A stretch of 64,000 bases of DNA from an uncultured Nitrososphaerales archaeon. Its GTDB lineage: Archaea > Thermoproteota > Nitrososphaeria > Nitrososphaerales > Nitrososphaeraceae. The DNA lies in the NCBI GenBank assembly GCA_963695855.1, contig CAVOHZ010000008.1:320001-384000 (forward strand), in the 5' to 3' direction. The position numbers were made by a program, and so were the translations under genes. Below the pieces are notes generated by a model. The model saw only the letters and a program-made list of their open reading frames with translations. It made no database searches and was not told the origin of the DNA. Of the stretch, positions 6,726 to 61,340 are shown one piece after another; position 1 is the stretch's first letter; every line of letters starts with the position of its first letter.

Positions 6726-7749
6726 TGCTCTGTTGCGTAACTCGTCTAGATAATCATCTATTTTTTGTTACTAAGGTAAATTATGTAACCCTTATACTTT
6801 GAAACCAGTTATACAAAGACGCTTTCAGTATTATCTCCTTTATCATGTTCTCAAATCTTATAGCAGTAACATATTCGCCAAACATTCTCTTAATACAGGA
6901 AAAGACAGTTTCTACAATCCATCTTTGTCCATAGTCTACACTATCCTTCCATTGTTGTAGATTGGTTTTCTGTGATTGTACGTTCTTGTTTCTCAAATAA
7001 TGGTTTGTCTTTCTATACTTGGCATTCTTTCTTACTTTAATTGCTGGTTGAATTCCTTTAAATGATAAAAATTGAAAATTCTTGTTACTGTCATAGGCAC
7101 CATCCATAATGGCAGTTTCAACTACTTTGTTCTGTTTTATAGTTATATCACCCACTAATTTAGGTAATACTTTTCCATCATGCACTTCTTCACTGGTTAC
7201 ATGTAATGATAGAATTCTCTTCTTTTTTATGTCAACTGCTATATGTATTTTGAGATAACCTCTTTTTACTTTCCATTTGTGCCTAATCCATTCTCCTCTG
7301 TTTGTAACTTTAACACCAGTAGAATCAATTACAATTACAAAATTATCATCATGTTGTAAAGTGGATTTATCCTGATCATCATCATCATCATCTATTTTGA
7401 TATCCAATCTGTTTATTCTTCTGCAAATCCCGCTATAATCTGGAATTGATGGTAACGTATTTGCAGCATGAGCTCGTACAATACCCTCAGTTTGTCTGTA
7501 TGGTAAATGAAAATATGCTCTCACATATCCAAGTAGTTTGATGAATGACTCTGGATATACAAATTTTCTACCTTCTTTGTATTCATTCATCTTCTCTAGT
7601 TCATAATCCCAGTTATCTATAACATCAAAATCAAGTAATACCTCACCACGTTTAACAAGAGATTCATTGTACCTCTTCCAGTTCACATGTATTATGACTA
7701 GAATAGGCTAGCTAAATGTGTTAGGAATAGCGAGTTACGCAACAAAGCA
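6726..7749 (-). mobile_element. IS5-family (IS903-like) element, intact
   Basis: 19-bp IRs TGCTCTGTTGCGTAACTCG / CGAGTTACGCAACAAAGCA; 8-bp TSD TTAAATTA. Confidence 0.95.
6781..7686 (-). CDS. IS5-family DDE transposase
   Basis: NWKRYNESLVKRG, IDSTG, MDGAYD, YGQRWIVETVFS. Confidence 0.95.
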   Translation of the reverse strand: MNWKRYNESLVKRGEVLLDFDVIDNWDYELEKMNEYKEGRKFVYPESFIKLLGYVRAYFHLPYRQTEGIVRAHAANTLPSIPDYSGICRRINRLDIKIDDDDDDQDKSTLQHDDNFVIVIDSTGVKVTNRGEWIRHKWKVKRGYLKIHIAVDIKKKRILSLHVTSEEVHDGKVLPKLVGDITIKQNKVVETAIMDGAYDSNKNFQFLSFKGIQPAIKVRKNAKYRKTNHYLRNKNVQSQKTNLQQWKDSVDYGQRWIVETVFSCIKRMFGEYVTAIRFENMIKEIILKASLYNWFQSIRVT

Positions 7750-37881: not shown

Positions 37882-40800
37882 ATGAAAAATTCCGATAAGA
37901 AATTTAAGGTTTTATTTGCTGGAATATTAATATTTATCTCTTTTCTTGTGTTAAACTCTTTTACATATTTATCAGTTAATGCTCAATCCCAAAGCACTTT
38001 TCTTACCCTTTCAGGATCGGATTTTCTTGATGTAAAAAATAGTGAACGATTGCAATTAGACAAATTTACTCTTTCTACATGGTTTTCTACAGATAAACAA
38101 GATTTCATAGATCCAGGGATGATTGTAAACAAGGGAGGTATGAATGATGATGCTCCTGGTAACAACATGAATTACGGTTTTTGGATAACACCAACCGAAC
38201 TTTTAGAGGGTGGTTTTGAGACAAAGTCAGGTACTAATCTCTTTATAACATCTAAAAATAAATTTAACGATGGTAATTGGCATCATGCATTTCTTACCTA
38301 TGATGGTTCTGTTTTGAAACTGTACGTAGATGGTAACGAAGAGGGTCAGCTCTCAGTGAAAGCAGTCCCTGACAACACAGGTACTCAACCGATAAGAATA
38401 GGTGCGAATTCATTTGCAGATGACAAATTTTTCACTGGAAAGGTGGATGAAGTTATGCTTTGGGATAGAGCATTATCGTTAGAAGAAATATCTAATTCCG
38501 ATAACTTTGACGAATTCCCATTAAATGGAAGAATTCTTTATCTGTCATTTTCATCAGTCTCTCCAATACAATCTACCTATAATTATGCCCCATACAAAAC
38601 TTTTGACGGAAGTGAAAAGGATGAAATTGATGAAGATGAGCAATTATTCCATCTAAGTAATTTTTCGGCAGCAAGTTGGTTTAGAAGCGATAGAATTGAC
38701 CATGATAAGGTGGGAATATTATTAAACAGGGGTGGATTTGGATCTGAACTACAAAATGAAAATCTAAATTATGGTATATGGTTAAATCCATCAGAGACTA
38801 TTGAAGCTGGTTTTGAAACTTCTTCCGGTACAAATGTTTTTGTGACCACATTAGATAAATTTAATGACGGGCTTTGGCATTACGCTGTATTAACGTACGA
38901 CGGCAAGACGTTAAAATTATATGTTGATGGTGTTCTTGTAGATGATAAAATAACATCAGGAATACTGCCAGATTTGGCAGGCGATACAAAATTTGTTATT
39001 GCTGGTGACTCTGTCGCAGATGATAAATTCTTTAAGGGTGATCTTGATGAGATTCGAGTATGGAATAGAGCTATATCTTCGGATGAAGTTTTAAGTGGAT
39101 TTAAAAATAATATATTTAATATTGATGGACAAATATTCTATGAATCGTACTCAGGTGAAGGTCCACCTCCACCACCACAACAAGAAGAATGTCCAGCAGG
39201 TGAACACTTTGATACTACCACAAACGCATGTGTCCCAGACTTACCAACTCCACCACCACAACAAGAAGAATGTCCAGCAGGTGAACACTTTGATACTACC
39301 ACAAACGCATGTGTCCCAGACTTACCAACTCCACCACCACAACAACAAGAATGTCCAGCAGGTGAACACTTTGATACTACCACAAACGCATGTGTCCCAG
39401 ACCTACCAACTCCACCACCACAACAACAAGAAGAATGTCCAGCAGGTGAACACTTTGATACTACCACAAACGCATGTGTCCCAGACTTACCAACTCCACC
39501 ACCACAACAACAAGAGTGTCCAGCAGGTGAACACTTTGATACTACCACAAACGCATGTGTCCCAGACCTACCAACTCCACCACCACAACAACAAGAGTGT
39601 CCAGCAGGTGAACACTTTGATACTACCACAAACGCATGTGTCCCAGACCTACCAACTCCACCACCACAACAAGAAGAATGTCCAGCAGGTGAACACTTTG
39701 ATACTACCACAAACGCATGTGTCCCAGACCTACCAACTCCACCACCACAACAAGAGTGTCCAGCAGGACTACACCTTGAGAATGGTCAGTGCGTCCCAGA
39801 TTTACCACCTCAACTAACCGGAATAGGCTTTCTTTTGGTAGTTACTAACGTTATGAATGATGATAGTGGTACAAAACAGGCTTCTGACTTTACTGTTAAT
39901 GTTAATGGGAATGGACCCTTGCCAAAAACATTCAGCGGTATTCAATCTCCAACAGCAACAAGTGTTGCCATTAATCAAGGAGACTACTCTGTAAGCCTTA
40001 AGGATAACTTAGGATATGAAACAGATTTCCTATACAATTGTGCTGGTACTATACACGTTGAAGAAACACGTGTTTGTGTTATCAATATAGATGATCCAAC
40101 GCCACCACCTCCACCACAAGGATGTCCAGGCGGAGAGCATCTTGATGAGAATGGGCAGTGCGTCCCAGATTTACCTCCTCCACCAGGAACTGGATTTCTT
40201 TTAGTAATTACAGATGTTGTTAACAATAATGGTGGTACAAAAACAGCTTCCGATATTGATATTACTGTTAATGGTAACAATCCTGTTCCATCTAATTTCA
40301 AGGGATCTCAAACACCATTAGGGAAAATTATTGCGCTGACTGAGGGGGGATTCTCTCTAACTGTCAATAATAATTTTGGATATCAAACAAAATTCCTATA
40401 TGATTGTGCCGGTACTGTCAAAGCTCAAGAAACCCATGTTTGTGTTATAAATCTGGATGATCCGATCACAACCGTTACTTCAGGAACAGCACAGGGATGT
40501 CCAGCAGGCCAACACTTTGATGCTACCACAAATGCATGTGTCCCAGAGTTACCTCCTCCACCACAGGGATGTCCAGCAGGACAACACTTTGACCAAACAA
40601 CACAAACATGCGTCCCAGACTTACCTCCTCCACCACAAGGATGTCCAGCAGGACAACACTTTGACCAAACAACACAAACTTGCGTCCCAGAGTTACCTCC
40701 TCCACCACAAGGTACATTTGTTCCTTTCAACTTTGCGGCAGCGGGTGATTGGAATTGCAACTCAAATTCTAAAAAAACAGTACAATCGATGCTTTCTAAA

Positions 40801-42408
40801 GATCCAGAAATTGTACTAGGACTTGGGGATTTCTCCTATACCTCGACTGCTGATTGTTGGTTAGATGTTATTACTCCTCTCAATGATAAAATGAAAATTA
40901 CAATAGGAAATCATGATAGTGACGAAGATGAAGGTCCTGAAATTACTGAACAATTCCTCGATCATTTCAATCTAGACAAACAGTATTATTCATTTATTCA
41001 GGGAAATACTTTATTTATATCGATGTCTACTCAGGTATCATTTTCTGAAAATTCGGAACAATTTAATTTTGTAAAAAGTGAACTAGAAAAAGCTGCAAAG
41101 GATAATAGAATCCTTTGGAAAGTAGTATACTTCCACAAACCTGCATACACTGCACCCAGTAAACATGAAGGGTTAGTGAGTTTACGTGATACCTATCACC
41201 CATTATTTGACCAATACAAAGTAGATCTGGTTCTTTCAGGTCATAATCACAATTATCAGAGAACTTTCCCAATTCACTTCAATCCAGATGATTCATCTAA
41301 ACCGATTATAGTTAATACTGACCAGAATACATATAACAACGTTGGAGCCCCAATTTTTATAATATCTGGAACGGGTGGAGTTTCGTTGTATGCATTGGGT
41401 GCCCAGCCAGACTTTAATGTAAAACAATTTGGAAAATTTGGACTTCTCAATATAGATGTGACAGGAAATAATGGTGAAAAGTTAGTTGGCACATTTGTTG
41501 ATAATGATGGTAATCAATTAGATCAATTCACTATTACAAAATCCATTGGACCATCTTCTGTGTCTTCTTTGGCAATAAATTCACAACAATCTGGAAGTAA
41601 AGGGGTTGATGTGTTTGGAGTGAATAAAATCTATCCCACCAAACTTGGAGGAGAAGAATGGTCCATGAACATGGAAAATCTGAAATCTGATTCAAGATTA
41701 AAGGTTGGTGCAAGTACAGGAGATATCATAAAGAACCAAGACGGGTCTTGGTCTCCTGTGTCTCAAGATAAGGTTATACTTAATGTATACACATCATCTG
41801 TTGGAGAATTCAACAAAGAAAATGTGACTACTTTCAATCTAAAAGAACTAGCCAAAAAAGGTCATTGGTTTAAAGAAAATGATTGGTTGAATATCGAAAT
41901 GGGTGGATATTTTAAATTGAATTCTACTGATGATCTTTCACTTGGATATAGTTTCATCCCAAGATCAATAGACCATAGTAATGATCATGGTGGATGTGGA
42001 GGCGCAACTCCGGTATTCACTTTTGGCTTCAACGGTGTATTGACGGCTAAAAAAGAGATGTGGTTTTCAAGTTTGATAAATTCTGCAGCGGAAAAAATTG
42101 GAGAACTATCACCGTCAATTGTCGGTAAATGGATAGGAATGAAGGCAGTTATCTATAACCTTCCCAACAACGATGTAAAGCAGGAGTTTTGGATGGACAA
42201 AGAAAACAATGGAAAATGGGAAAAGGTCTATGAATTTACCGATAAAGGCGGATTTGGTGTTACCGGCGAAGCAGGACCTGAAAAATGTGGAGGAGAATGG
42301 GACCAGAGATATACATGGGGTTCTCCTAAGGTCACATTTAAATGGAATCAGGCTGATGTCGAGTTTAAGAATCTTTCCGTACGTGAAATAGTACCTCCAA
42401 AAGAATGA
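37882..42408 (+). CDS. 1508-aa modular secreted protein: 2x LamG, Cys/Pro repeats, 2x beta-sandwich, metallophosphoesterase, unassigned C-terminal domain
   Basis: Signal peptide; DG.WH....TYDG..LKLYVDG and F.G..DE...W.RA twice; AAGDW, GDFSY, GNHD, SGHNH. Confidence 0.92.
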   Translation: MKNSDKKFKVLFAGILIFISFLVLNSFTYLSVNAQSQSTFLTLSGSDFLDVKNSERLQLDKFTLSTWFSTDKQDFIDPGMIVNKGGMNDDAPGNNMNYGFWITPTELLEGGFETKSGTNLFITSKNKFNDGNWHHAFLTYDGSVLKLYVDGNEEGQLSVKAVPDNTGTQPIRIGANSFADDKFFTGKVDEVMLWDRALSLEEISNSDNFDEFPLNGRILYLSFSSVSPIQSTYNYAPYKTFDGSEKDEIDEDEQLFHLSNFSAASWFRSDRIDHDKVGILLNRGGFGSELQNENLNYGIWLNPSETIEAGFETSSGTNVFVTTLDKFNDGLWHYAVLTYDGKTLKLYVDGVLVDDKITSGILPDLAGDTKFVIAGDSVADDKFFKGDLDEIRVWNRAISSDEVLSGFKNNIFNIDGQIFYESYSGEGPPPPPQQEECPAGEHFDTTTNACVPDLPTPPPQQEECPAGEHFDTTTNACVPDLPTPPPQQQECPAGEHFDTTTNACVPDLPTPPPQQQEECPAGEHFDTTTNACVPDLPTPPPQQQECPAGEHFDTTTNACVPDLPTPPPQQQECPAGEHFDTTTNACVPDLPTPPPQQEECPAGEHFDTTTNACVPDLPTPPPQQECPAGLHLENGQCVPDLPPQLTGIGFLLVVTNVMNDDSGTKQASDFTVNVNGNGPLPKTFSGIQSPTATSVAINQGDYSVSLKDNLGYETDFLYNCAGTIHVEETRVCVINIDDPTPPPPPQGCPGGEHLDENGQCVPDLPPPPGTGFLLVITDVVNNNGGTKTASDIDITVNGNNPVPSNFKGSQTPLGKIIALTEGGFSLTVNNNFGYQTKFLYDCAGTVKAQETHVCVINLDDPITTVTSGTAQGCPAGQHFDATTNACVPELPPPPQGCPAGQHFDQTTQTCVPDLPPPPQGCPAGQHFDQTTQTCVPELPPPPQGTFVPFNFAAAGDWNCNSNSKKTVQSMLSKDPEIVLGLGDFSYTSTADCWLDVITPLNDKMKITIGNHDSDEDEGPEITEQFLDHFNLDKQYYSFIQGNTLFISMSTQVSFSENSEQFNFVKSELEKAAKDNRILWKVVYFHKPAYTAPSKHEGLVSLRDTYHPLFDQYKVDLVLSGHNHNYQRTFPIHFNPDDSSKPIIVNTDQNTYNNVGAPIFIISGTGGVSLYALGAQPDFNVKQFGKFGLLNIDVTGNNGEKLVGTFVDNDGNQLDQFTITKSIGPSSVSSLAINSQQSGSKGVDVFGVNKIYPTKLGGEEWSMNMENLKSDSRLKVGASTGDIIKNQDGSWSPVSQDKVILNVYTSSVGEFNKENVTTFNLKELAKKGHWFKENDWLNIEMGGYFKLNSTDDLSLGYSFIPRSIDHSNDHGGCGGATPVFTFGFNGVLTAKKEMWFSSLINSAAEKIGELSPSIVGKWIGMKAVIYNLPNNDVKQEFWMDKENNGKWEKVYEFTDKGGFGVTGEAGPEKCGGEWDQRYTWGSPKVTFKWNQADVEFKNLSVREIVPPKE
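39163..39810 (+). repeat. intragenic tandem repeat, 7 near-identical units of about 81 bp plus one variant
   Basis: Encodes CPAGEHFDTTTNACVPDLPTPPPQQ(Q)E(E); related units at about 40100-40185 and 40495-40710. Confidence 0.97.
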
Positions 42409-42683: not shown

Positions 42684-43856
42684 TTGAGGCTGGGTCATAA
42701 TTATTCCATTTTCATAACGAACAAAGCTAGTTTATTGGTGTATGATGTTTTGGTGAAAAACCATCTAAACCAACAAACTAGCACAGCAGAAGAGATCAAC
42801 ATCTATTCTAATTAGTATTTTGTATTTGATTGGCTTGATTCATTGGCCACATAATAATAGATGGGGAGGAGGACGTGGGAGACCATATGTCTATTCTCCT
42901 ACTGTTATTTTGAGATGCTTTATAGTGCGTATATGGTTCAGATTAGATTCTAATAGAGCATTGTATGAATACCTTGCTATGGAGATGCCATATACAACAA
43001 AAAGATAACGAAAGTATGTGGATTGTCAAGAGTACCTAGTAGAAGAACATTTGATAGGCGTCTTGTAACAATATCTAAAGATATTAAAAACAGAATAACT
43101 ACAATGGGCAAACTTTTTGTACGTGATAAAATAGTTGATCCGCATATTCTTTCAACAGACAGTACACTTATCAAGACTAAAGGCTATGTCTGGCATAAAT
43201 CATCTATGACTGAAGGAGTAGTACCACGTTCTGGTATTGATACAGATGCAATGTAGGGATTCAGTCATACAAAGGGTTGGATATTTGGATACAAATTACA
43301 TTTGATATCCAGTACTGGTTCTATAATTGTACCTTCGGCAGCAGATTTTACAACTGCTAACATACCTGACAATCAAATGTACAGTATATTGACAGCAAGT
43401 CTACCTGTTACAATAATTAAAAGAACATTATTCATGTCTGCAGATCCTGGATACGATGATCATGAATTATATGATCTCAGTACAGATATGGGATTTAGAT
43501 TGGTATTTCCAGTAAAGAGATATAAAAATACACATGCTGACAGGATAAAACTGATAGAATTTTATGAATCTAATGTTGGACAGGCTATCTATTCCTTAAG
43601 AAGTATATCAATTGAACTATTGATAGGTCATATCAAATCGTTGTTCAGGATAGATCCATTACCTGTCAGGGGATATGTCAAGAGTTGTGCATCAGTATTA
43701 TTGTCAGTACTGTTATACCAGATACTTGTCTATTATAACCATAAGATCAATAAAGATAATCCTATGGCAATCAAATACATACTAGGAACATAACTATTGA
43801 CTATATACTATTGTTAACATTACCATATTTATTATATGAATTATGACCAGTCTCAA
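42684..43856 (+). mobile_element. DDE-type IS (IS5/IS4-superfamily-like) with pseudogenised transposase
   Basis: IRs TTGAGGCTGGGTCATAATT / AATTATGACCAGTCTCAA, CTAA on both flanks; fragments PSRRTFDRRL, STDST, GYKLH, ADPGYD. Confidence 0.85.
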
Positions 43857-50359: not shown

Positions 50360-51382
50360 CAACTACTACATGCTGTTCTGAATCTGGATATGTCTCCTAT
50401 CTCAGAACTAATGAGCATTGCAGAAAAATAGTCTATTCCTGTCATACTCATTAGTATCTTTACGTTTTCATTTTGAGATGCCTCAGTGGATATCTGTTTT
50501 TCAATCTGTTTGATTTCAGAATTTAGAAATTCAATACTGTGAATGTAGTTTACAAGTTGAATCTGGTCATTACCTTTTAATTCGATATTCTTTAGTCATT
50601 GTATACCTTTTAAACCGAATATATGTCCATAATTACATGTTAGATCATATTTATCAAGTAAGGAATGTACTCTATTCATAACTCTGGTTCTATCAGATAC
50701 TAGGTTTATTCTCAGTCGTAGTAGAGATCTATCTTCTCTTACCTTATCTGGAGCAATATATGATTCTGCAATCAAGTTAGATCGTAGTAGATGTGCTAAT
50801 GTTCGTGCATCGAGTTTATCTGTCTTTATCCTTGCTTCTGCTATTGCCTTGGTCTTCATTGGATTTGCCAACTTAACATCTATTCCATGTTTCTCAAATG
50901 CCTCGTATGTCTTGAGCCACATGTTGGCTGTTGATTCGCAAACAGCCTGACATTTTCTGTTAATATACTTTTTACCCAAATTAGAAGCAAATCTTTTTGC
51001 TTCTTCTAGTGTATTTTCATATTTTGTTTCCTCTATTATGGAACCATCTTTATCTGTAATACATACGACGCAATTTCTCTTTCCAATATCTACTGCAATA
51101 TAGTAATCATCATCATTACTATTTTTTGATTCTATTATTTTTTCTATTTTTATTCTCTTTCTCACCTCCTTTTTTTATTATGACACTATTATCAGTATAC
51201 CAACTAACCAGCAAAGCTGCAAACATCTATCAGAGCTCTTTTGATGGCTCATTTATACAGCAGCTAACATACATCCCCATTCAACAAGCAAGATCTTATC
51301 ACAGAAAGATAGATCACGCACAACAAGGGGTTAGTCAGTTGGATAAGAGAATAGATAACAAGAAAACACTTTTACATGTATT
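50360..51382 (-). mobile_element. IS110/IS1111-type element 2 (3'-truncated; transposase pseudogene 51165 to about 50360)
   Basis: AVDIG, CEST, KTDKLDAR (DEDD); in-frame TGA at 50596 then ...MSMTGIDYFSAMLISSEIGDISRF; left end TG|AATAC-ATGTAAAA. Confidence 0.88.
51200..51342 (-). ncRNA. putative bridge/seek RNA of IS110 element 2
   Basis: Outer stem CCAACUGACUA/UGGUUAGUUGG enclosing two internal-loop hairpins (CCCC/GGGG, AGCUGC/GCAGCU); loop segment 51279-51288 identical to the left junction 51380-51389. Confidence 0.78.
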
Positions 51383-51390
51383 CAACAAGG

Positions 51391-52408
51391 TGCTCTGTTG
51401 CGTAACTCGTCTAGATAATCATCTATTTTTTGTTACTAAGGTAAATTATGTAACACTTATACTTTGAAACCAGTTATACAAAGACGCTTTCAGTATTATC
51501 TCCTTTATCATGTTCTCAAATCTTATAGCAGTAACATATTCTCCAAACATTCTCTTGATACAGGAAAAGACTGTTTCTACTATCCATCTCTGTCCATAGT
51601 CTACACTATCCTTCCATTGTTGTAGATTGGTTTTCTGTGATTGTACGTTCTTGTTTCTCAAATAATGGTTTGTCTTTCTATACTTGGCATTCTTTCTTAC
51701 CTTAATTGCTGGTTGAATTCCTTTAAATGATAGAAATTGAAAATTCTTGTTACTGTCATAGGCACCATCCATAATGGCAGTTTCAACTACTTTGTTCTGT
51801 TTTATAGTTATATCACCCACTAATTTAGGTAATACTTTTCCATCATGTACTTCTTCACTGGTTACCTGCAGTGATAAGATTCTCTTGTTTTTTATGTCAA
51901 CTGCTACATGTATCTTTAGATAACCTCTCTTCACATTCCATTTATGTCTAATCCATTCTCCTCTGTTTGTAACTTTAACACCAGTAGAATCAATTACAAT
52001 TACAAAATTATTATCATGTTGTAAAATGGATTTATCCTGATCATCATCATCTATTTTGATATCTAATCTGTTTATTCTTCTGCAAATCCCGCTATAATCT
52101 GGAATTGATGGTAACGTATTTGCAGCATGAGCTCGTACAATACCCTCAGTTTGTCTGTATGGTAAATGAAAATATGCTCTCACATATCCAAGTAGTTTGA
52201 TGAATGAATCTGGATATACAAATTTTCTACCTTCCTTGTCCTTATTCATCTTCTCTAGTTCAGAATCCCAGTTATCTATAACATCAAAATCAAGTAATAC
52301 CTCACCACGTTTAACAAGAGATTCATTGTACCTCTTCCAGTTCACATGTATTATGACTAGAATAGGTTAGCTAAATGTGTTAGGAATAGCGAGTTATGCA
52401 ACAAAGCA
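51391..52408 (-). mobile_element. IS5-family (IS903-like) element, close copy of 6726-7749
   Basis: IRs TGCTCTGTTGCGTAACTCG / CGAGTTATGCAACAAAGCA; 8-bp TSD CAACAAGG. Confidence 0.95.
51446..52345 (-). CDS. IS5-family DDE transposase
   Basis: Near-identical to 6781-7686. Confidence 0.95.
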   Translation of the reverse strand: MNWKRYNESLVKRGEVLLDFDVIDNWDSELEKMNKDKEGRKFVYPDSFIKLLGYVRAYFHLPYRQTEGIVRAHAANTLPSIPDYSGICRRINRLDIKIDDDDQDKSILQHDNNFVIVIDSTGVKVTNRGEWIRHKWNVKRGYLKIHVAVDIKNKRILSLQVTSEEVHDGKVLPKLVGDITIKQNKVVETAIMDGAYDSNKNFQFLSFKGIQPAIKVRKNAKYRKTNHYLRNKNVQSQKTNLQQWKDSVDYGQRWIVETVFSCIKRMFGEYVTAIRFENMIKEIILKASLYNWFQSISVT

Positions 52409-52688: not shown

Positions 52689-53627
52689 GAGCCTATCCCA
52701 AAATTAACCTCCTATGAACAATTATGCTATTAGCTATTAGCCAATTGTACGAGACAGAGATAGTTCTCATCCTTCTTTTCATATCTTGTAAATAATTTCA
52801 TCATGAATCGATTATGCCAAGAATTTGTTCTCTCTACCACCCATCTTCTTGCAGGATGTCTCTTGTTGAGTTTCTTTTCTTCTCTTCTGTGTCGTATATG
52901 TGGAATATATCCTCTTTTGGTAATTTCTTGTTCTACTTCCTTGGAATGATATGCTTTGCTTTGTCAAGACATAGATTCTGCTTTTTCTTATTCTTCTTCT
53001 TGTTTCTATATTTTGCTATTGATGATGAAGGTGGTGGTCTTTTGATAACAATATTATCAATTGTATTTGTTGCAACAGTAACATCATGAGTATATGCAGA
53101 TGTTATAACAGTTGAAAGGGGAATACCATCTTTATCTGTTAAAATATGTCTTTTACTACCTAATTTACTTCTATCTGTAGTAGGATTATGACCTGTCATC
53201 GCCCCCCTAAAGGCGATTTTATAGAGATGCTATCAAGTGACTGCCAGTTCCATCTGATTCCTCTTTTGTTTTCATATATTTTTAGCAATCTAAACCGTAG
53301 TCTCTCAAAAATACCTGACTGCCTCCATTCTTGAAATCTTCTATGACATGTAGAACCAGAACCATATTCTTTGGGTAACATTTTCCATTGACATCCAGTT
53401 CTCAAGACAAACAGGATACCATCAAATACTTCTCTGTAAGGAATAATGGGACGACCTATTGTATTCTATGGTTTTTCAAAAGGGAAAATATTTGTAATTT
53501 CATTCCAAAGATCATCTGGAATAAGTGTAATTGTTCCAACATACTTTCTACTCCTACACAAACAAACATGATCGGATACGATATAAAACCAAAGAGCTAT
53601 ATTCTTATCTATTTTTGGGATAGGCTC
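52689..53627 (-). mobile_element. IS5-family (IS427-like, split ORF) element, degraded
   Basis: IRs GAGCCTATCCCAAAA, TAA on both flanks; RTGCQW..LP, G-run frameshift site, GSKRH..TD; further breaks in orfB. Confidence 0.9.
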
Positions 53628-54072
53628 TAAAGTAAAGCAGGAAAGGGTGCGTATTTAATTAGATTATTATTTTCCCTGAGACAATATCTTACATCTTTTT
53701 CTAATGAGTCGATTCGATTTCCTACAAACTTCCTACTAAACTTTATAATCTCATTAGGGTCAGAAAAGAATTTCATGAATTTATACACTTCATAAATCCT
53801 TTTATAATAATAAAATTTATCCTAATACAGTTAATATAATAACATTGTTCTAATAAAAAAGGAAATAATTTAGTAAAAGCATTTAGTAAATATGAATTAA
53901 TATTTGATCATGTAACTTTCAAAATGAACTCTGCTTTGGTTGGATCGTTTTTGATTAATTTTCTCCAAATCTAAAAGGTTAGTAGATGAATAACAGGTCT
54001 TGACATTACCTTCATTAACAAATTAAATTAAATTAAATTATAATTTATTTCATTAATCAAACCCATTTACTC

Positions 54073-54799: not shown

Positions 54800-54917
54800 A
54801 TTATATTATTCTACAATTTTTTATAACAAACATATTTTATTAATATTATTAGATTTAAACAATCAGAAAATCAGGCTCTGACGATATGAAAATCTTTTAG
54901 TCTGTTTCATTACTGTA

Positions 54918-55042
54918 TGTTGGCTAGGTTCAAAATTAACATACTCCGTATGAGAGTGAGGCTCTGACTGAACCGTATCTGTGAAGTGGCTATCATAGTA
55001 CCCTTCGAGGGTGGATGGATGTTTGCCACCTGTTAGCCAACA
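54918..55042 (+). ncRNA. putative bridge/seek RNA of IS110 element 1
   Basis: Outer stem UGUUGGCUA/UAGCCAACA; target loop closed by GGUUCA/UGAACC with AAAUUAACA and AGGCUCUG; donor loop closed by GUGGC/GCCAC with AUGGAUG. Confidence 0.85.
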
Positions 55043-55070
55043 AATAAAAAAAGAAGGTGAATAAAAATAA

Positions 55071-56151
55071 TTGAATCATCTTGGAATAGATGTTGGAAAG
55101 AAAAAATGCAGCGCAGCACTAAAAGATGATAGAGGCAAGACACTGGATGAATTCTTCTTTGGTAACAATTCTGATGGAATATTAGAACTGATTGAAAGGA
55201 TACACAATCATGGAACAAAAAAATGTAATGCAGTACTGGAATCTACAGGAAACATGTGGATGAGAATACATGATATATTGGAAGATAATGGAATAGATAC
55301 AGTACTAGCAAATCCATACAGAACAAAGATAATAGCACAAGCAAAGATAAAATCAGATAAACTTGATGCACGTATATTATCTGATCTGCTGAGAACTGGA
55401 TTGGTATACGAGTCATATGTACCTGTAAAGAAAGGAATTCAGAGAAAAAAGAAGTCTGGTCAGACATAGAATAGTCTTGTCTAGAACCAAGACAAAACTT
55501 GCAAACAAGGTACATGCTATTTTAGACAAATATGAGTACAGAACAGAGCTGACAGACATATTCGGTAGATCGGGAATTGAGTGGCTAAAATCACTCTCAG
55601 TTTCACCAATAGACAGGATAATACTGAATACAACACTAACATCCATAGAATCGATAGATAACCAGATAGAAATAGTATCAAAAGAGATAGCAAAATACGC
55701 ATGGAAGGATAGTCAAGATGTAAAGATACTTCTCAGCATGACAGGAATAGACGTATTTTCTGCAATGCTGATATCAACGGAAATAGTGGATATCACCAGA
55801 TTCTCTACACCATGGAAACTTGTTAGTTATGCAGGATTATCTCCATCAACAAGAGAATCATCTGGAAAAACAAAAACAGGTAGAATAACCAAACAAGGAT
55901 CACCATTATTAAGATGGATACTAGTACAGTGTTCATTATCTGCAGTAAGACATGACCGTCACATGAGAACCTTCTATGAAAGAATCAAACAGAGAAAGGG
56001 ACATGGGAAAGCAATAGTTGCAACAGCAAAGGAGGTGCTTATTATAATATGGTACATGCTAACAAGACACCAATTGTATAGATACATGAATAGAACAAGG
56101 TATGAACAGAAACTGGAAAGTCTGAAGAAGAGTGGATCGCAAGAAAGGTAA
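55071..56151 (+). pseudogene. IS110 DEDD recombinase with one frameshift near 55430
   Basis: GIDVG, LEST, KSDKLDAR; C-terminal YAGLSP...SSG, ITKQGS..LRW; AAGGTGA RBS upstream. Confidence 0.92.
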
Positions 56152-56314
56152 CAATTAAACAAAAAAGACAACGACCTCAGAGAACAAGGATGTCATATAT
56201 AGCGGAGGCTATTGCTAATAATGCTTAATAGATAGAAAAACATAACAAAATGAGGCTAAACAGGATAGAAAAGATAACCAGCATACAGGTAGATTTTCAT
56301 GGATGTTAATTTAA

Positions 56315-57233
56315 GAGCCTATCCCAAAAATAGATAGGAATATAGCTCCTTTGTTTCTTATCATATCTGATAATGTTTAAGAGTGAAAAATATGTTAGAA
56401 GTATTACATGTATTCCAGATGATCTTTGGAATGAAATTACAAATATTTTCCCTTTTGAAAAACCATAGAATACAATAGGGCGTCCCATTATTCCTTACAG
56501 AGAAGTATTTGATGGTATCCTGTTTGTCTTGAGAACTGGATGTCAATGGAAAATGTTACCCAAAGAATATGGTTCTGGTTCTACATGTCATAGAAGATTT
56601 CGAGAATGGAGAGAATCAGGTATATTTGATAAATTATGGAGCAGATTATTAAAATTATATGATTTAAAGAAAGGAATAAAATGGAACTGGCAGTCACTTG
56701 ATAGCATCTCTATAAAATCGCCTTTAGGGGGGCGATGACAGGTCATAATCCTACTACAGATAGAAGTAAATTAGGTAGTAAAAGACATATTTTAACAGAT
56801 AAAGATGGTATTCCCCTTTCAACTGTTATAACATCTGCATATACTCATGATGTTACTGTTGCAACAAATACAATTGATAATATTGTTATCAAAAGACCAC
56901 CACCTTCATCATCAATAGCAAAATATAGAAACAAGAAGAAGAATAAGAAAAAGCAGAATCTATGTCTTGATAAAGCATATCATTCCAAGGAAATAGAACA
57001 AGAAGTTATCAAAAGAGGATATATTCCACATATACGACACAGAAGAGAAGAAAAGAAATACAGCAATAGACATCCTGCAGTAAGAAGATGGGTGGTAGAG
57101 AGAACAAATTCTTGGCATAACAGATTCAGAAAATTATTTACAAGATATGAAAAGAAGGATGAGAACTATCTTGGTCTTGTACAGTTAGCAAATAGCATAA
57201 TTGTTCATAGGAGGTTAATTTTGGGGTAGGCTC
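56315..57233 (+). mobile_element. IS5-family (IS427-like, split ORF) element
   Basis: IRs GAGCCTATCCCAAAA / TTTTGGGGTAGGCTC, TAA on both flanks; orfA with in-frame TAG, G-run junction, orfB 56735-57229 (DKAY, RWVVER..W...R.L..RYEK). Confidence 0.92.
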
Positions 57234-57596: not shown

Positions 57597-59507
57597 TTGA
57601 ATTTGAAATTAATAATGAACATCATGATTAATATTATATTTTTAAAATTATTTTCATTATTATCAGTTTCATTCTTAATATTATTGTCAATGACTTTTCC
57701 TATTAAGAGTTTTTCCTTTACACAACAAAATTTTGAACAACCTGCTATGGATCAGCCGGCTATCGCGCAATTACCTTCACCAGATGAAAAAAATAAAATA
57801 GGTTACATAATATTAACAACAAATGTTATTAATGATAATGGAGGTAATAAACAACCCTCCGATTTTACAATAAACATTCATGACACCTCAGCATTTCCTT
57901 CTTCATTGGAAGCTGTACCATCACCACAAGTTCAAATTATTTCTGTTAATGAAGGTAAATACTCAATTTCTGTAAATAATGTTAATGGATATAATATATC
58001 TCTTGAAAACCAATGCGAAGGTGTTATAAATTATGGTGAAGTGAGATCTTGTCTTATTATTGCAGATGATGATGGTAATATTTCTTCTACTTCAAAATTA
58101 CCGATATTACCGCTGTCCCTATCTGACTTACTTCTCCCTGACCTTGCAGGAAAAGATCAGGATATTAAACCTAAAATTGCAGCGATACCAAAACCAGCAG
58201 ATCCGTCTAAAGTAGGATTTCTGTTAATATCAACAAATGTTATTAATGATAATGGAGGTAATAAACAACCCTCCGATTTTACAATAAACATTCATGGTAC
58301 CCCAGCATTTCCTTCTTCATTTAAAGCTGCTTCATCGAAGATGATCCAAGTAGTTGCTGTTTCGGAGGGACAATACTCTGTGTCAGTCGCTAATAGTGTA
58401 GCTGGATATCAATCATTCCTGCAATTTGAATGTCAAGGTCAGATTAATCCAAACGAGATAAAAACTTGTTTAATTACATTAAATGATATTTCATCGCCTA
58501 TACCTTGTCCACAAGGACAACACCTTGAGAATGGTCAATGTGTTCCAAATCCACCAGAACCCTGTCCACAAGGACAACACCTTGAGAATGGTCAATGTGT
58601 TCCAAATCCACCAGAACCCTGTCCACAAGGACAACACCTTGAGAATGGTCAATGTGTTCCAAATCCACCAGAACCCTGTCCACAAGGACAACACCTTGAG
58701 AATGGTCAATGTGTTCCAAATCCACCCCCTACAGGAGGGGCATTTCCAGTACAAGGTGTCATCTGGATGTATGATTCAAAACAAACATTAATCAATGACA
58801 TCTCACTGCCATCAGGAGAGACACATCCCATCGATAAAGTGTTATTGTCTAGTGGAGCTAGTGGTGTAAACGCACATATTATTAAGAATGGTTGGCTAGA
58901 AGTGCAATCGGGTGGTGGAAATGGTAGGGTATATTGGGATTATCATGAATTACCACAATTTTCACAATTAGATACAGCTGGTTTCAACACTGTAATGACA
59001 GGAACATTTAAGCTAAAACCTGGAATAGAGAATTTATCAATAAAAGACGGGAATCATGGTACAGATGGATGGATTTTGGATGGTAAATTGGTGTTTGGTG
59101 GATTCGGATTCTCAATTCATAGGACTGAAGTTCAATCGAAGGTAGAATACTGGCATAACCTGCAGGGTCAGGAAGTCGCTTCCCAATATCCAAACGGTAT
59201 CATACTACAAGACGACAAAGAGTACAAATTCTTCTCAACTATGAGAACTGATAGGACAAATAATGAGGTAGTACTCAATGTGTGGTTAGATTTCGGCGAT
59301 GGTAAAGGATGGGTCCTAGTTATGAAAGATAGGAAGTGGGGTATGTCTGGATGGAATCCAGATGGTATTCCAAATGGAGACGATACAACAGAAATAGAAA
59401 AGGGTCCATCATTTATTAAAAAACATCATATTTGGACTAGAGCAAATGGATCGGGACATTTACCAATCAAAGATATAAGAATAGGTACTATAAGCTTTAT
59501 TTCCTAA
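57597..59507 (+). CDS. modular secreted protein: 2x beta-sandwich, 4x Cys/Pro repeat, unassigned beta-rich C-terminal domain
   Basis: Signal peptide; TNVINDNGGNKQPSDFTINIH twice; CPQGQHLENGQCVPNPPEP x4. Confidence 0.88.
   Translation: MNLKLIMNIMINIIFLKLFSLLSVSFLILLSMTFPIKSFSFTQQNFEQPAMDQPAIAQLPSPDEKNKIGYIILTTNVINDNGGNKQPSDFTINIHDTSAFPSSLEAVPSPQVQIISVNEGKYSISVNNVNGYNISLENQCEGVINYGEVRSCLIIADDDGNISSTSKLPILPLSLSDLLLPDLAGKDQDIKPKIAAIPKPADPSKVGFLLISTNVINDNGGNKQPSDFTINIHGTPAFPSSFKAASSKMIQVVAVSEGQYSVSVANSVAGYQSFLQFECQGQINPNEIKTCLITLNDISSPIPCPQGQHLENGQCVPNPPEPCPQGQHLENGQCVPNPPEPCPQGQHLENGQCVPNPPEPCPQGQHLENGQCVPNPPPTGGAFPVQGVIWMYDSKQTLINDISLPSGETHPIDKVLLSSGASGVNAHIIKNGWLEVQSGGGNGRVYWDYHELPQFSQLDTAGFNTVMTGTFKLKPGIENLSIKDGNHGTDGWILDGKLVFGGFGFSIHRTEVQSKVEYWHNLQGQEVASQYPNGIILQDDKEYKFFSTMRTDRTNNEVVLNVWLDFGDGKGWVLVMKDRKWGMSGWNPDGIPNGDDTTEIEKGPSFIKKHHIWTRANGSGHLPIKDIRIGTISFIS
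58503..58727 (+). repeat. intragenic 57-bp tandem repeat x4
   Basis: TGTCCACAAGGACAACACCTTGAGAATGGTCAATGTGTTCCAAATCCACC repeated in frame. Confidence 0.97.
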
Positions 59508-60867: not shown

Positions 60868-61340
60868 TTGAGGCTGGGTCATAATTATTTTTCCATTTTC
60901 ATAACGAATAAAGCTAGTTTATTGGTGTATGATGTTTTGGTGAAACACTATACAAACAAACAAACTAGCACAGAAAAGATCCACGTCTATTCTAATTAGG
61001 ATTTTGTATTTGATTGGTTTGATCCGTTGGCCACATAATAATAATAGAGGAGTAGGAGGAGGGCATGGTAGACCATATGTCTATCCTCCTACTGTTATAC
61101 TACGATGTTTTATAGTATGTGTATGGTTCAGATTGTATTATAACAGAGCATTGCATGAATATCTGGCAATGGAGATAGCATATAACAGAAAGGTAATGAA
61201 AGGATGTGGAATGTCAAGAGTACCTAGCAGAAGAACATTTGATAGACGTCTTGCTACACTATCTATCTAATGATATTAAAAATAGGAATACTACAATGGG
61301 TGAAGTTTTTGTTCATGAAAAAATAATCGAACCATACAAA
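60868..61340 (+). mobile_element. 5' fragment of the same IS as 42684-43856
   Basis: Same left IR TTGAGGCTGGGTCATAATT and GRPYVY.PTVILRCFIV fragment; truncated. Confidence 0.85.

Follow-up and report, generated by a model that had tools for sequence, protein, structure and literature searches.

The window analysed here is a stretch of 64,000 nucleotides (nt) from contig CAVOHZ010000008.1 (positions 320,001 to 384,000) of an uncultured Nitrososphaerales archaeon. Between approximately 50.3 and 57.3 kb it contains several nested insertion sequences, two of which encode IS110-family transposases. Upstream of the transposase gene, both of these elements (element 1 and element 2) carry a predicted bridge RNA (seekRNA), in whose target loop the two bases adjoining the guide match the element's own left end; among relatives these bases tend to follow that end as it varies. 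The host genome comprises 3.55 Mb in 11 contigs with a G+C content of approximately 31%, and gave a full-length match to the archaeal small-subunit ribosomal RNA model (1490.8 bits). It holds twelve copies of the RNA region of element 1 and three of that of element 2.

Genomic setting and element boundaries

54881-56305, + strand: element 1, an IS110-family element assigned to the IS1111 type, 1425 base pairs (bp) with a single TG core counted at the right end; bounds from copy comparison and the 7/3 rule (extensions of 7 bp left and 3 bp right outside the sub-terminal repeats)
54874-54880, + strand: left target half of element 1, GGCTC (5 nt) and the TG core; the homology of the 12 genome copies begins exactly here
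54886-54895, + strand: left sub-terminal inverted repeat of element 1, ATGAAAATCT, 7 nt in from the core-inclusive left end
56291-56300, + strand: right sub-terminal inverted repeat of element 1, AGATTTTCAT, followed by GGA and the TG core (56301-56305)
56306-56315, + strand: right target half of element 1, TTAATTTAAG, which doubles as the end of a neighbouring insertion sequence
55071-56151, + strand: transposase gene of element 1, in open reading frame (ORF) pieces 55071-55469 and 55477-56151
51382 to approximately 50368, - strand: element 2, a 3'-truncated element assigned to the IS1111 type, cut inside its transposase gene
50596-51165, - strand: ORF of the transposase remnant of element 2; protein similarity runs on to approximately 50368
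From 51382, - strand: left end of element 2, beginning AATAC and continuing into the repeat ATGTAAAAGT
51383-51389, - strand: left target half of element 2, CTTGT and the TG core

The left junction of element 1 reads GGCTC-TG joined to ACGAT (GGCTC-TG plus AC, 54874-54882) and its right junction CATGGA-TG joined to TTAAT (ATGGA-TG plus TT, 56299-56307), while the left junction of element 2 is CTTGT-TG joined to AAT (51389-51380, - strand). The right junction and right guide of element 2 are read only from two full genome copies (B1 and B2), because the window copy is truncated. Intact copies from both families, as well as the two ORF pieces of the window, score above cut-off for domains PF01548 (DEDD_Tnp_IS110) and PF02371 (Transposase_20), and NCBIfam model NF033542 gave scores of 226.5 and 250.5 bits (cut-off 140). 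The transposase gene of the window copy of element 1 is split by a 4-nt duplication near 55427-55434. This duplication is absent from environmental contigs, and another genome copy of element 1 possesses an intact ORF of 356 amino acids.

Predicted bridge RNAs and their guides

54918-55042, + strand: bridge (seek) RNA core of element 1; outer stem (54918-54926 with 55034-55042) around a target loop and a donor loop, from a single-sequence fold
54932-54941, + strand: 5' strand of the target loop of element 1, AAAATTAACA, reverse complement of TG and 7-8 nt of right flank; pairs with the top strand
54960-54966, + strand: target-loop 3' guide of element 1, GGCTC-TG, of the same sense as the left target and core; would pair with the bottom strand
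54967-54968, + strand: target-loop extension of element 1, AC, equal to left-end positions 1-2 and handshake-like; an invariant U follows (54969)
54991-54994, + strand: start of the donor-loop 5' strand of element 1, UAUC, complementary to left-end positions 3-6
55015-55021, + strand: donor-loop 3' guide of element 1, ATGGA-TG, identical to the final 7 nt of the right end
55022-55023, + strand: donor-loop extension of element 1, TT, equal to right-target positions 1-2 in this copy; an invariant U follows (55024)
51200-51342, - strand: bridge (seek) RNA of element 2, with the architecture of element 1; fold z = -2.76; aligns with the two full copies and is among the sequences of the RNAalifold analysis
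51317-51326, - strand: 5' strand of the target loop of element 2, the 3' part of which (GUUGUGCG) pairs with TG and the right target of the full copies
51288-51282, - strand: target-loop 3' guide of element 2, CTTGT-TG; extension AA (51281-51280), equal to left-end positions 1-2; invariant U at 51279
51230-51224, - strand: donor-loop 3' guide of element 2, ATAGA-TG; extension UU (51223-51222), then U (to 51221)

RNAalifold analysis of 25 sequences gave an outer stem enclosing two modules, each composed of a stem, an internal loop and a hairpin, with 26 pairs in total, 13 of these showing compensatory changes. Both loops share one geometry, in which the 3' strand consists of a single base, 5 nt of left target or right end, the 2-nt core, two variable nucleotides and a U before the closing stem. 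The MAFFT alignment misplaced family B (that of element 2) in the target-loop 3' strand. A search of the whole window against Rfam identified no family at gathering score, with only chance-level matches at 54850-55100 (E values 4.5 and 8.6). Two RNA variants, either tolerated or disabling, were seen among the copies and relatives: a 23-nt tandem duplication of the target-loop 3' strand and closing stem in one genome copy (copy j, C3:465558, L011), and a (GA)n expansion within the donor-loop hairpin of L031.

The guides follow the DNA that they are predicted to read. Left-target heptamer and 3' guide are identical in 20 of 24 loci, representing nine different heptamers, from other Nitrososphaerales genomes and one Bathyarchaeia genome; within the host genome, GGTCCTG is found in both the flank and the guide of copy f, the guide following the target. 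In nine of the twelve genome copies of the element 1 RNA, the target-loop 5' strand has at its variable position an A, C or G that fits the T, G or C of the right flank. For element 2, pairing of GUUGUGCG by hand gave 8/8 positions (including two G-T) for copy B2 and 7/8 for B1. In the donor loop the 3' guide covaries with the right end in the genome's mini elements described below (AUAGA-UG with CAT-AGA-TG), and the start of the 5' strand, read by eye, covaries with left-end positions 3-6 (UAUC/GAUA, UGUC/GACA, UCCU/AGGA, UAUA/UAUA, UGUAU/AUACA). The remainder of this 5' strand (to 54998) shows no complementarity to the core or to left-end positions 1-2. The reading of the left end is thereby asymmetric: the two positions left unread by the donor 5' strand are the two read by the target-loop extension.

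Among 5000 mononucleotide shuffles of the non-coding region of element 1, the 10-nt left-junction match was reached four times, the 9-nt right-junction match 46 times, the 8-nt reverse-complement match 169 times and all three together never; the 10-nt junction match of element 2 was reached in 10 of 5000. The A preceding GGCTCTG, counted as part of the left match when the locus was read from sequence only, is conserved in just two of the twelve genome copies and drops out of it.

The target-loop extension follows the left end

States of the extension and left end were curated by hand from regular-expression hits checked by eye, giving 47 elements placeable on a transposase tree. This tree comprises 49 proteins, all unnamed relatives, after 13 of 62 were dropped as short or containing more than one stop; L040 was kept off it because of stops, and L145 was judged unreliable and omitted from the state table. 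In 42 of the 47 elements the extension agrees at both bases with left-end positions 1-2, the states being AC, AA or AT. Along the tree, at least five changes are counted for left-end position 2 and seven for the extension. Four of these changes coincide, because the joint state changes eight times against five and seven separately. In four independent pairs the extension moved the same way as the left end in 3.3 on average and never the opposite way. An extension-blind search of loci without right ends yielded 17 further left junctions, of which 15 match, including a single TC/TC (L121). The AG-core clade includes left ends of all three kinds, AA, AC and AT, and the extension matches in each.

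Following the extension, all relatives have a U regardless of their left end, and AAU is kept even by relatives of element 2 whose left ends read AACAC or AAGAT. Accordingly, AAT in element 2 represents two informative bases and a fixed U. The sequence-only reading had the left guides running past the core into the recombinant junction, with two to three bases expected to covary with the left end or the right target. Its AC and TT (element 1) and AA (element 2) stand, as does the covariation of the two target-loop bases with the left end; the third base has no part in the match, and covariation with the right target is partial.

It is the product, namely the left end, that the target-loop extension matches, and not the substrate (right target TT in element 1). 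In IS621-type handshakes, two bases 3' of the 3' guide are complementary to the other DNA partner and covary with it, and this is what is found in the target loop here. By analogy, bases tracking the element's own left end are what would be expected of a handshake aiding strand exchange.

The donor-loop extension

The donor loop was scored over 29 unique types; the right flanks of L136 and L158 are unreliable and were not used. Position 1 of the extension equals right-target base 1 in 16 of the 29 types, against shuffle means of 9.1 globally (p approximately 0.002) and 11.8 within clades (p approximately 0.005), in shuffles that do not account for relatedness. Matches in the AG-core clade look convincing (GU/GT and CG/CG, with C at position 1 in all). 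The element 1 clade shows one compensated switch, in which the extension goes from UU to UA as the right target goes from TT to TA; here the extension base and the target-loop 5' strand form the pseudo-pair AU in 13 cases and UA in six, with six unpaired (exceptions L038, L096 and L134). Inspection by eye of two other possible partners, the last 2 nt of the left target and left-end positions 1-2, revealed no general pattern; in the GAG clade (L108-L130) the first base is mostly A, like left-end position 1. The right-junction match of element 1 is real but not general, because it fails in the element 2 family and in L063, L065 and L066 and varies among sisters. The donor-loop extension is constrained at most weakly, and at its first base only. 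The likeness to IS621 handshake guides drawn in the initial reading consequently divides between the loops: the position directly 3' of the 3' guide and before the U, together with the covariation, bears it out in the target loop, while in the donor loop it is weak.

Probable assignment to the IS1111 type

Siddiquee 2024 (PMC11187229) described a reversal of guide order as separating the IS1111 from the IS110 families, and based the definition of IS1111 members on sub-terminal inverted repeats outside which the element extends by 7 bp at the left and 3 bp at the right. Repeats of about 11-13 bp are characteristic of the group, and its left extension may also be 6 bp. The present elements follow the plan of a 5-nt left target, the core TG, 5 nt, a repeat starting ATG, and at the other end a repeat ending CAT, 3 nt, the core and the right target. 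With the core counted on the left, element 1 reads TG+ACGAT before ATGAAAATCT and GGA after AGATTTTCAT, and the element 2 family TG+AATAC before a 12-bp repeat and AGA at the right. Of 80 metagenome loci returned, 71 were examined and nine lacking upstream sequence were left out. Ends could be located in 35 of the 71 metagenome loci and in a further 12 from genomes or plasmids; the 7/3 rule and identical cores (TG or AG) hold in every one of them, and the sub-terminal repeats, of 10 bp in element 1 and 12 bp in the element 2 family, match at 10-13 of 13 positions across these 35 and 12 loci. The motif GL-P----S(t)G is recognizable in the transposase alignment, with G254, L255, P257 and S262 invariant; it reads GLCPTIYQSG in the element 2 family and GLAPSTRESS in the element 1 family, where S replaces the final G.

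In both elements the RNA has its top-strand complement 5' of its bottom-strand complement, as in IS1111. The reverse-complement guide had already been placed 5' of the same-strand guide in the sequence-only reading, which also noted an upstream RNA and sub-terminal inverted repeats. All of this is confirmed, for element 1 in the window and for the right guide of element 2 through the full copies elsewhere in the genome. The order is indeed opposite to that of IS621, in which the 3' side (4-7 nt) pairs with the top strand and the 3' guides are immediately followed by the handshake guides and then a U linker (Hiraizumi 2024, PMC11208158; Durrant 2024, PMC11208160). Characters of the wider IS110 family are present (DEDD/RuvC-like N-terminal and Transposase_20 C-terminal domains, RNA loops complementary to both target strands and to the ends). 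In the IS110 group, to which IS621 belongs, sub-terminal inverted repeats are absent or of 2-3 bp (Durrant 2024, PMC11208160); those described here are of 10-13 bp.

The downstream RNA of IS1111 elements is not found: nearly all relatives with ends, among them 34 of the 35 metagenome loci (upstream non-coding region of 162-202 nt), have an upstream region of 160-230 nt that exceeds the downstream one in length. This upstream position is the sole departure from the textbook IS1111 layout. Since guide order, repeats, 7/3 extensions and motif all fit, the elements are classified as probable IS1111-type elements with an upstream RNA, a class set by ends, guide order and motif.

Proposed mechanism and alternative explanations

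We consider it likely that the two RNAs are archaeal, upstream-encoded bridge (seek) RNAs of IS1111 type, that the target-loop extension is handshake-like, and that the mechanism resembles that of IS621. By analogy with IS621, a tetrameric recombinase-RNA complex, held together by the RNA, would unite the junction of the circular donor with the target. Exchange would begin with the strand to which the 3' guides pair; relative to the transposase gene this would be the bottom strand, mirroring the situation in IS621. Once exchanged, the donor strand coming in could pair with the target-loop extension, and this handshake would stabilise the exchange product. The 9-nt contiguity of guide and extension would also fit the integrated left junction during excision.

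Several observations weigh against this reading. Among the assembled contigs of sequencing runs (best share 0.37 of the sampled words) none lay on the RNA region and no joints were found, two RNA libraries from one study covering parts of the transposase gene only. The order of strand exchange is drawn purely from analogy. The sign test on four independent pairs gave p values of 0.125-0.5, significance being out of reach with four pairs, and the target-loop match has exceptions in the curated set (L036, L123, L130, L136 and L158), in the blind set (L117 and L151) and in L040. The state table is hand-curated, and both the proteins off the tree (13/62) and the metagenome loci without upstream sequence (9/80) are missing from the counts. 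In the donor loop, position 2 is without signal (10/29 against 8 expected), and the shuffle tests ignore relatedness. The element 2 family (UU against right target CC or CA), L063, L065 and L066 match at neither position, and sisters with one target have different donor extensions (L122 UA, L128 UU, L129 AU), as drift predicts.

The drifting donor extensions would suit an explanation in which the product-matching dinucleotides have no function of their own, the RNA being conserved for scaffold contacts and the left end for recombinase preference by the cleavage site, with matches reflecting shared ancestry. That position 1 is nearly always A, that AC dominates whole clades, and that only about five left-end changes are available for a sign test that is not significant, would all be expected of such separate conservation. 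It is nevertheless improbable, as AC, AA, AT and the single TC/TC are each matched, four of the five changes inferred from the tree are shared by left end and extension, each arriving at an identical base, and the AG-core clade alone contains AA, AC and AT elements that all carry the matching extension. A role in excision is equally possible for the extension, because the same contiguity fits the integrated left junction: target-loop 3' strand and extension form an unbroken copy of it (left target, core and left end), circle formation requires the flanking target (Siddiquee 2024, PMC11187229), and handshake guides modulate excision as well as insertion (Hiraizumi 2026, PMC13626964). This does not exclude a handshake, the same pairing occurring in both reactions. 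That the extension recognises the integrated junction for excision rather than stabilising the insertion exchange seems somewhat unlikely, as an equal match of the donor-loop extension to the right junction would then be predicted and is not observed.

The initial reading went further and proposed that the layout defines a distinct archaeal subtype. An archaeal branch of IS621-like (IS110-group) elements with inverted guide order would agree with the upstream RNA, which the IS110 group shares, and with the abundance of relatives in Nitrososphaerales genomes, together with one Bathyarchaeia genome and one Natrinema plasmid. It is very unlikely, given that guide order, sub-terminal repeats, 7/3 extensions and the GL-P----S motif all fit IS1111, and that the nearest outgroups on the tree are an IS1111-like element of classical layout from the same phylum (L073) and family C from the same genome. 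The order is not a new layout, because it is already published as that of the IS1111 family, of which 7/3 repeats are the hallmark and for which upstream exceptions are listed (PMC11187229). Nor can the group be called exclusively archaeal, as bacterial elements at 35-38% identity are among its nearest plasmid-borne relatives. The guide order would read differently again if the RNA were transcribed from the opposite strand. This can be dismissed almost entirely: two U-G pairs conserved in 23/25 and 22/25 sequences would become C-A mismatches, which fixes the RNA strand as +, and the IS621-like loop geometry (long 5' guide, short 3' guide, 2 nt, U) is present on the + strand only.

A broader generalization built on the IS1111-type reading is offered tentatively, and we hold it to be doubtful. 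A large archaeal IS1111-type clade, common in ammonia-oxidising and other archaea, might constitute a mirror-handed, circularly permuted bridge system, with the RNA upstream, the antisense strand exchanged first, a one-sided target-loop handshake, and a donor loop that reads neither the core nor left-end positions 1-2, donor recognition depending on the sub-terminal repeats. If true, the asymmetric handshake could set the balance of insertion and excision differently from IS621.

Comparison with known systems and relatives

The IS1111 seekRNA elements ISEc11, ISKpn4, ISPa11 and ISPst6 (PMC11187229) share with those described here a DEDD transposase, sub-terminal repeats, 7/3 extensions, a top-strand match 5' of the bottom-strand match, and site-specific insertion at a dinucleotide core without duplication. 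They differ in that their RNA is downstream and here it is upstream, in archaeal hosts, with a 2-nt product-matching target-loop extension documented. The IS621 bridge RNA (PMC11208160, PMC11208158, PMC13626964) also lies upstream and forms two loops with long 5' and short 3' guides covering the core, each 3' guide running directly into two handshake nucleotides and then a U linker; its target-loop handshake likewise matches the donor. In contrast to IS621, the sub-terminal repeats here are long, the core is TG or AG (CT in IS621), the donor-loop 5' strand skips the core and the donor-loop handshake is weak. Siddiquee 2024 (PMC11187229) lists as exceptions in the placement of the non-coding region ISMtsp17 (upstream) and ISHvo10 and ISAcp5 (both sides). 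The comparison with these covers the placement of the region as published, and neither an RNA nor guides are described for them in the sections consulted; the Natrinema plasmid element (L058) has non-coding regions on both sides, of 191 and 220 nt. MITEPpu9 of Pseudomonas putida, which carries ssr9 (PMC12288879), is a small non-autonomous element with a small-RNA gene between insertion-sequence ends, as are the mini elements of this genome. However, ISPpu9 belongs to the IS110 group and has a downstream RNA, whereas here the donor guide of each mini element matches its own variant right end.

Relatives of the element 2 transposase were found in 23 of 401 genomes of the phylum. Metagenome relatives number 426. 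For one on a Rhizobium plasmid (L059), a candidate 11-nt repeat and possibly a long upstream region were seen, but the 7/3 rule and equal cores did not fit.

Reversed guide order and repeats are already published, and upstream-RNA exceptions have been noted in print (PMC11187229). In the accessible parts of the literature on handshakes and IS1111, no analysis of a product-matching extension in IS1111-type RNAs was found; figures and supplements of the founding papers (Durrant 2024, Extended Data Fig. 10c; Siddiquee 2024, Supplementary Figs 2, 6, 7 and 12) may bear on it. On this coverage, it appears that no handshake-type covariation has been published for the IS1111 branch, and the size of the upstream-RNA clade in archaea appears to be undescribed.

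Bridge and seek RNAs are being engineered as programmable recombinases. Handshake bases of IS621 tune insertion against excision, and selection at the same position in the IS1111 branch, on the mirrored strand and with several targets and cores (TG, AG), would extend this design rule to a second and far less studied scaffold, for which compact archaeal orthologues with intact copies are available for testing. Nothing is overturned by the finding.

Mini elements, targets and neighbouring mobile DNA

Outside the window, seven elements of 300-340 bp (L007-L013) consist of a left end, a bridge RNA and a right end without a transposase, and resemble MITEs (transposable elements of miniature size with inverted repeats) riding with a guide RNA of their own:

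C8:114017 (-), C8:187899 (+), C10:1354501 (+), C10:1746456 (-), C10:1407608 (+), C3:465558 (+) and C3:37675 (-): mini elements

Four of the seven possess the variant right end CAT-AGA-TG and a donor guide AUAGA-UG to match, and their kind of target is that of the full element.

The uninterrupted target GGCTCTG+TTAA occurs ten times in the genome, where approximately one occurrence is expected. It is recognized as the terminal sequence of other insertion sequences, because every occurrence is at the left edge of repeated DNA. Element 1 itself is inserted in the end of the insertion sequence at 56306-57229. IS4321 and IS5075 target the terminal repeats of transposons, and the insertion of element 1 recalls both. 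Homing of the elements and of RNA-carrying mini elements into insertion-sequence termini helps to explain the nested clusters in these archaeal genomes.

Family C is a third IS110-family lineage of the genome, at 38% identity (C10:140729-141742, 267175-268188 and 1598722-1599735). Its layout is that of classical IS1111 elements, the left end being short and the right end long; the left flank is again GGCTCTG, and downstream segments repeat both junctions; it was left out of the counts, as its right end did not fit a TG core. Two further observations concern targets among the metagenome relatives. L158 has a target-loop 5' strand with exactly the sequence of L142's left flank; the two elements are related, and both seem to target one repeat, on opposite strands. 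In the GAG clade the core is TG, yet the target-loop 5' strand mostly ends in CU, fitting the AG core of the sister clade (some end in CA or CG), which suggests a recent core switch with the 5' guide lagging.

Of three other repeated mobile elements in the window, the first is a transposase gene of 299-301 amino acids in two copies that are 97-98% identical (51391-52345 and 6726-7686). Copies of this transposase element abut the element 2 relatives B1 and B2, which suggests that it is their target. A two-ORF transposase element is present as inverted copies at 52933-53635 and 56306-57229, and a repeat that is 79-91% identical at 42697-43077 and 60884-61265. Two large ORFs (37882-42408, 1508 amino acids; 57597-59507, 636 amino acids) contain tandem repeats of 81/72 nt and 57 nt with Cys- and Pro-rich units, and probably encode surface proteins.

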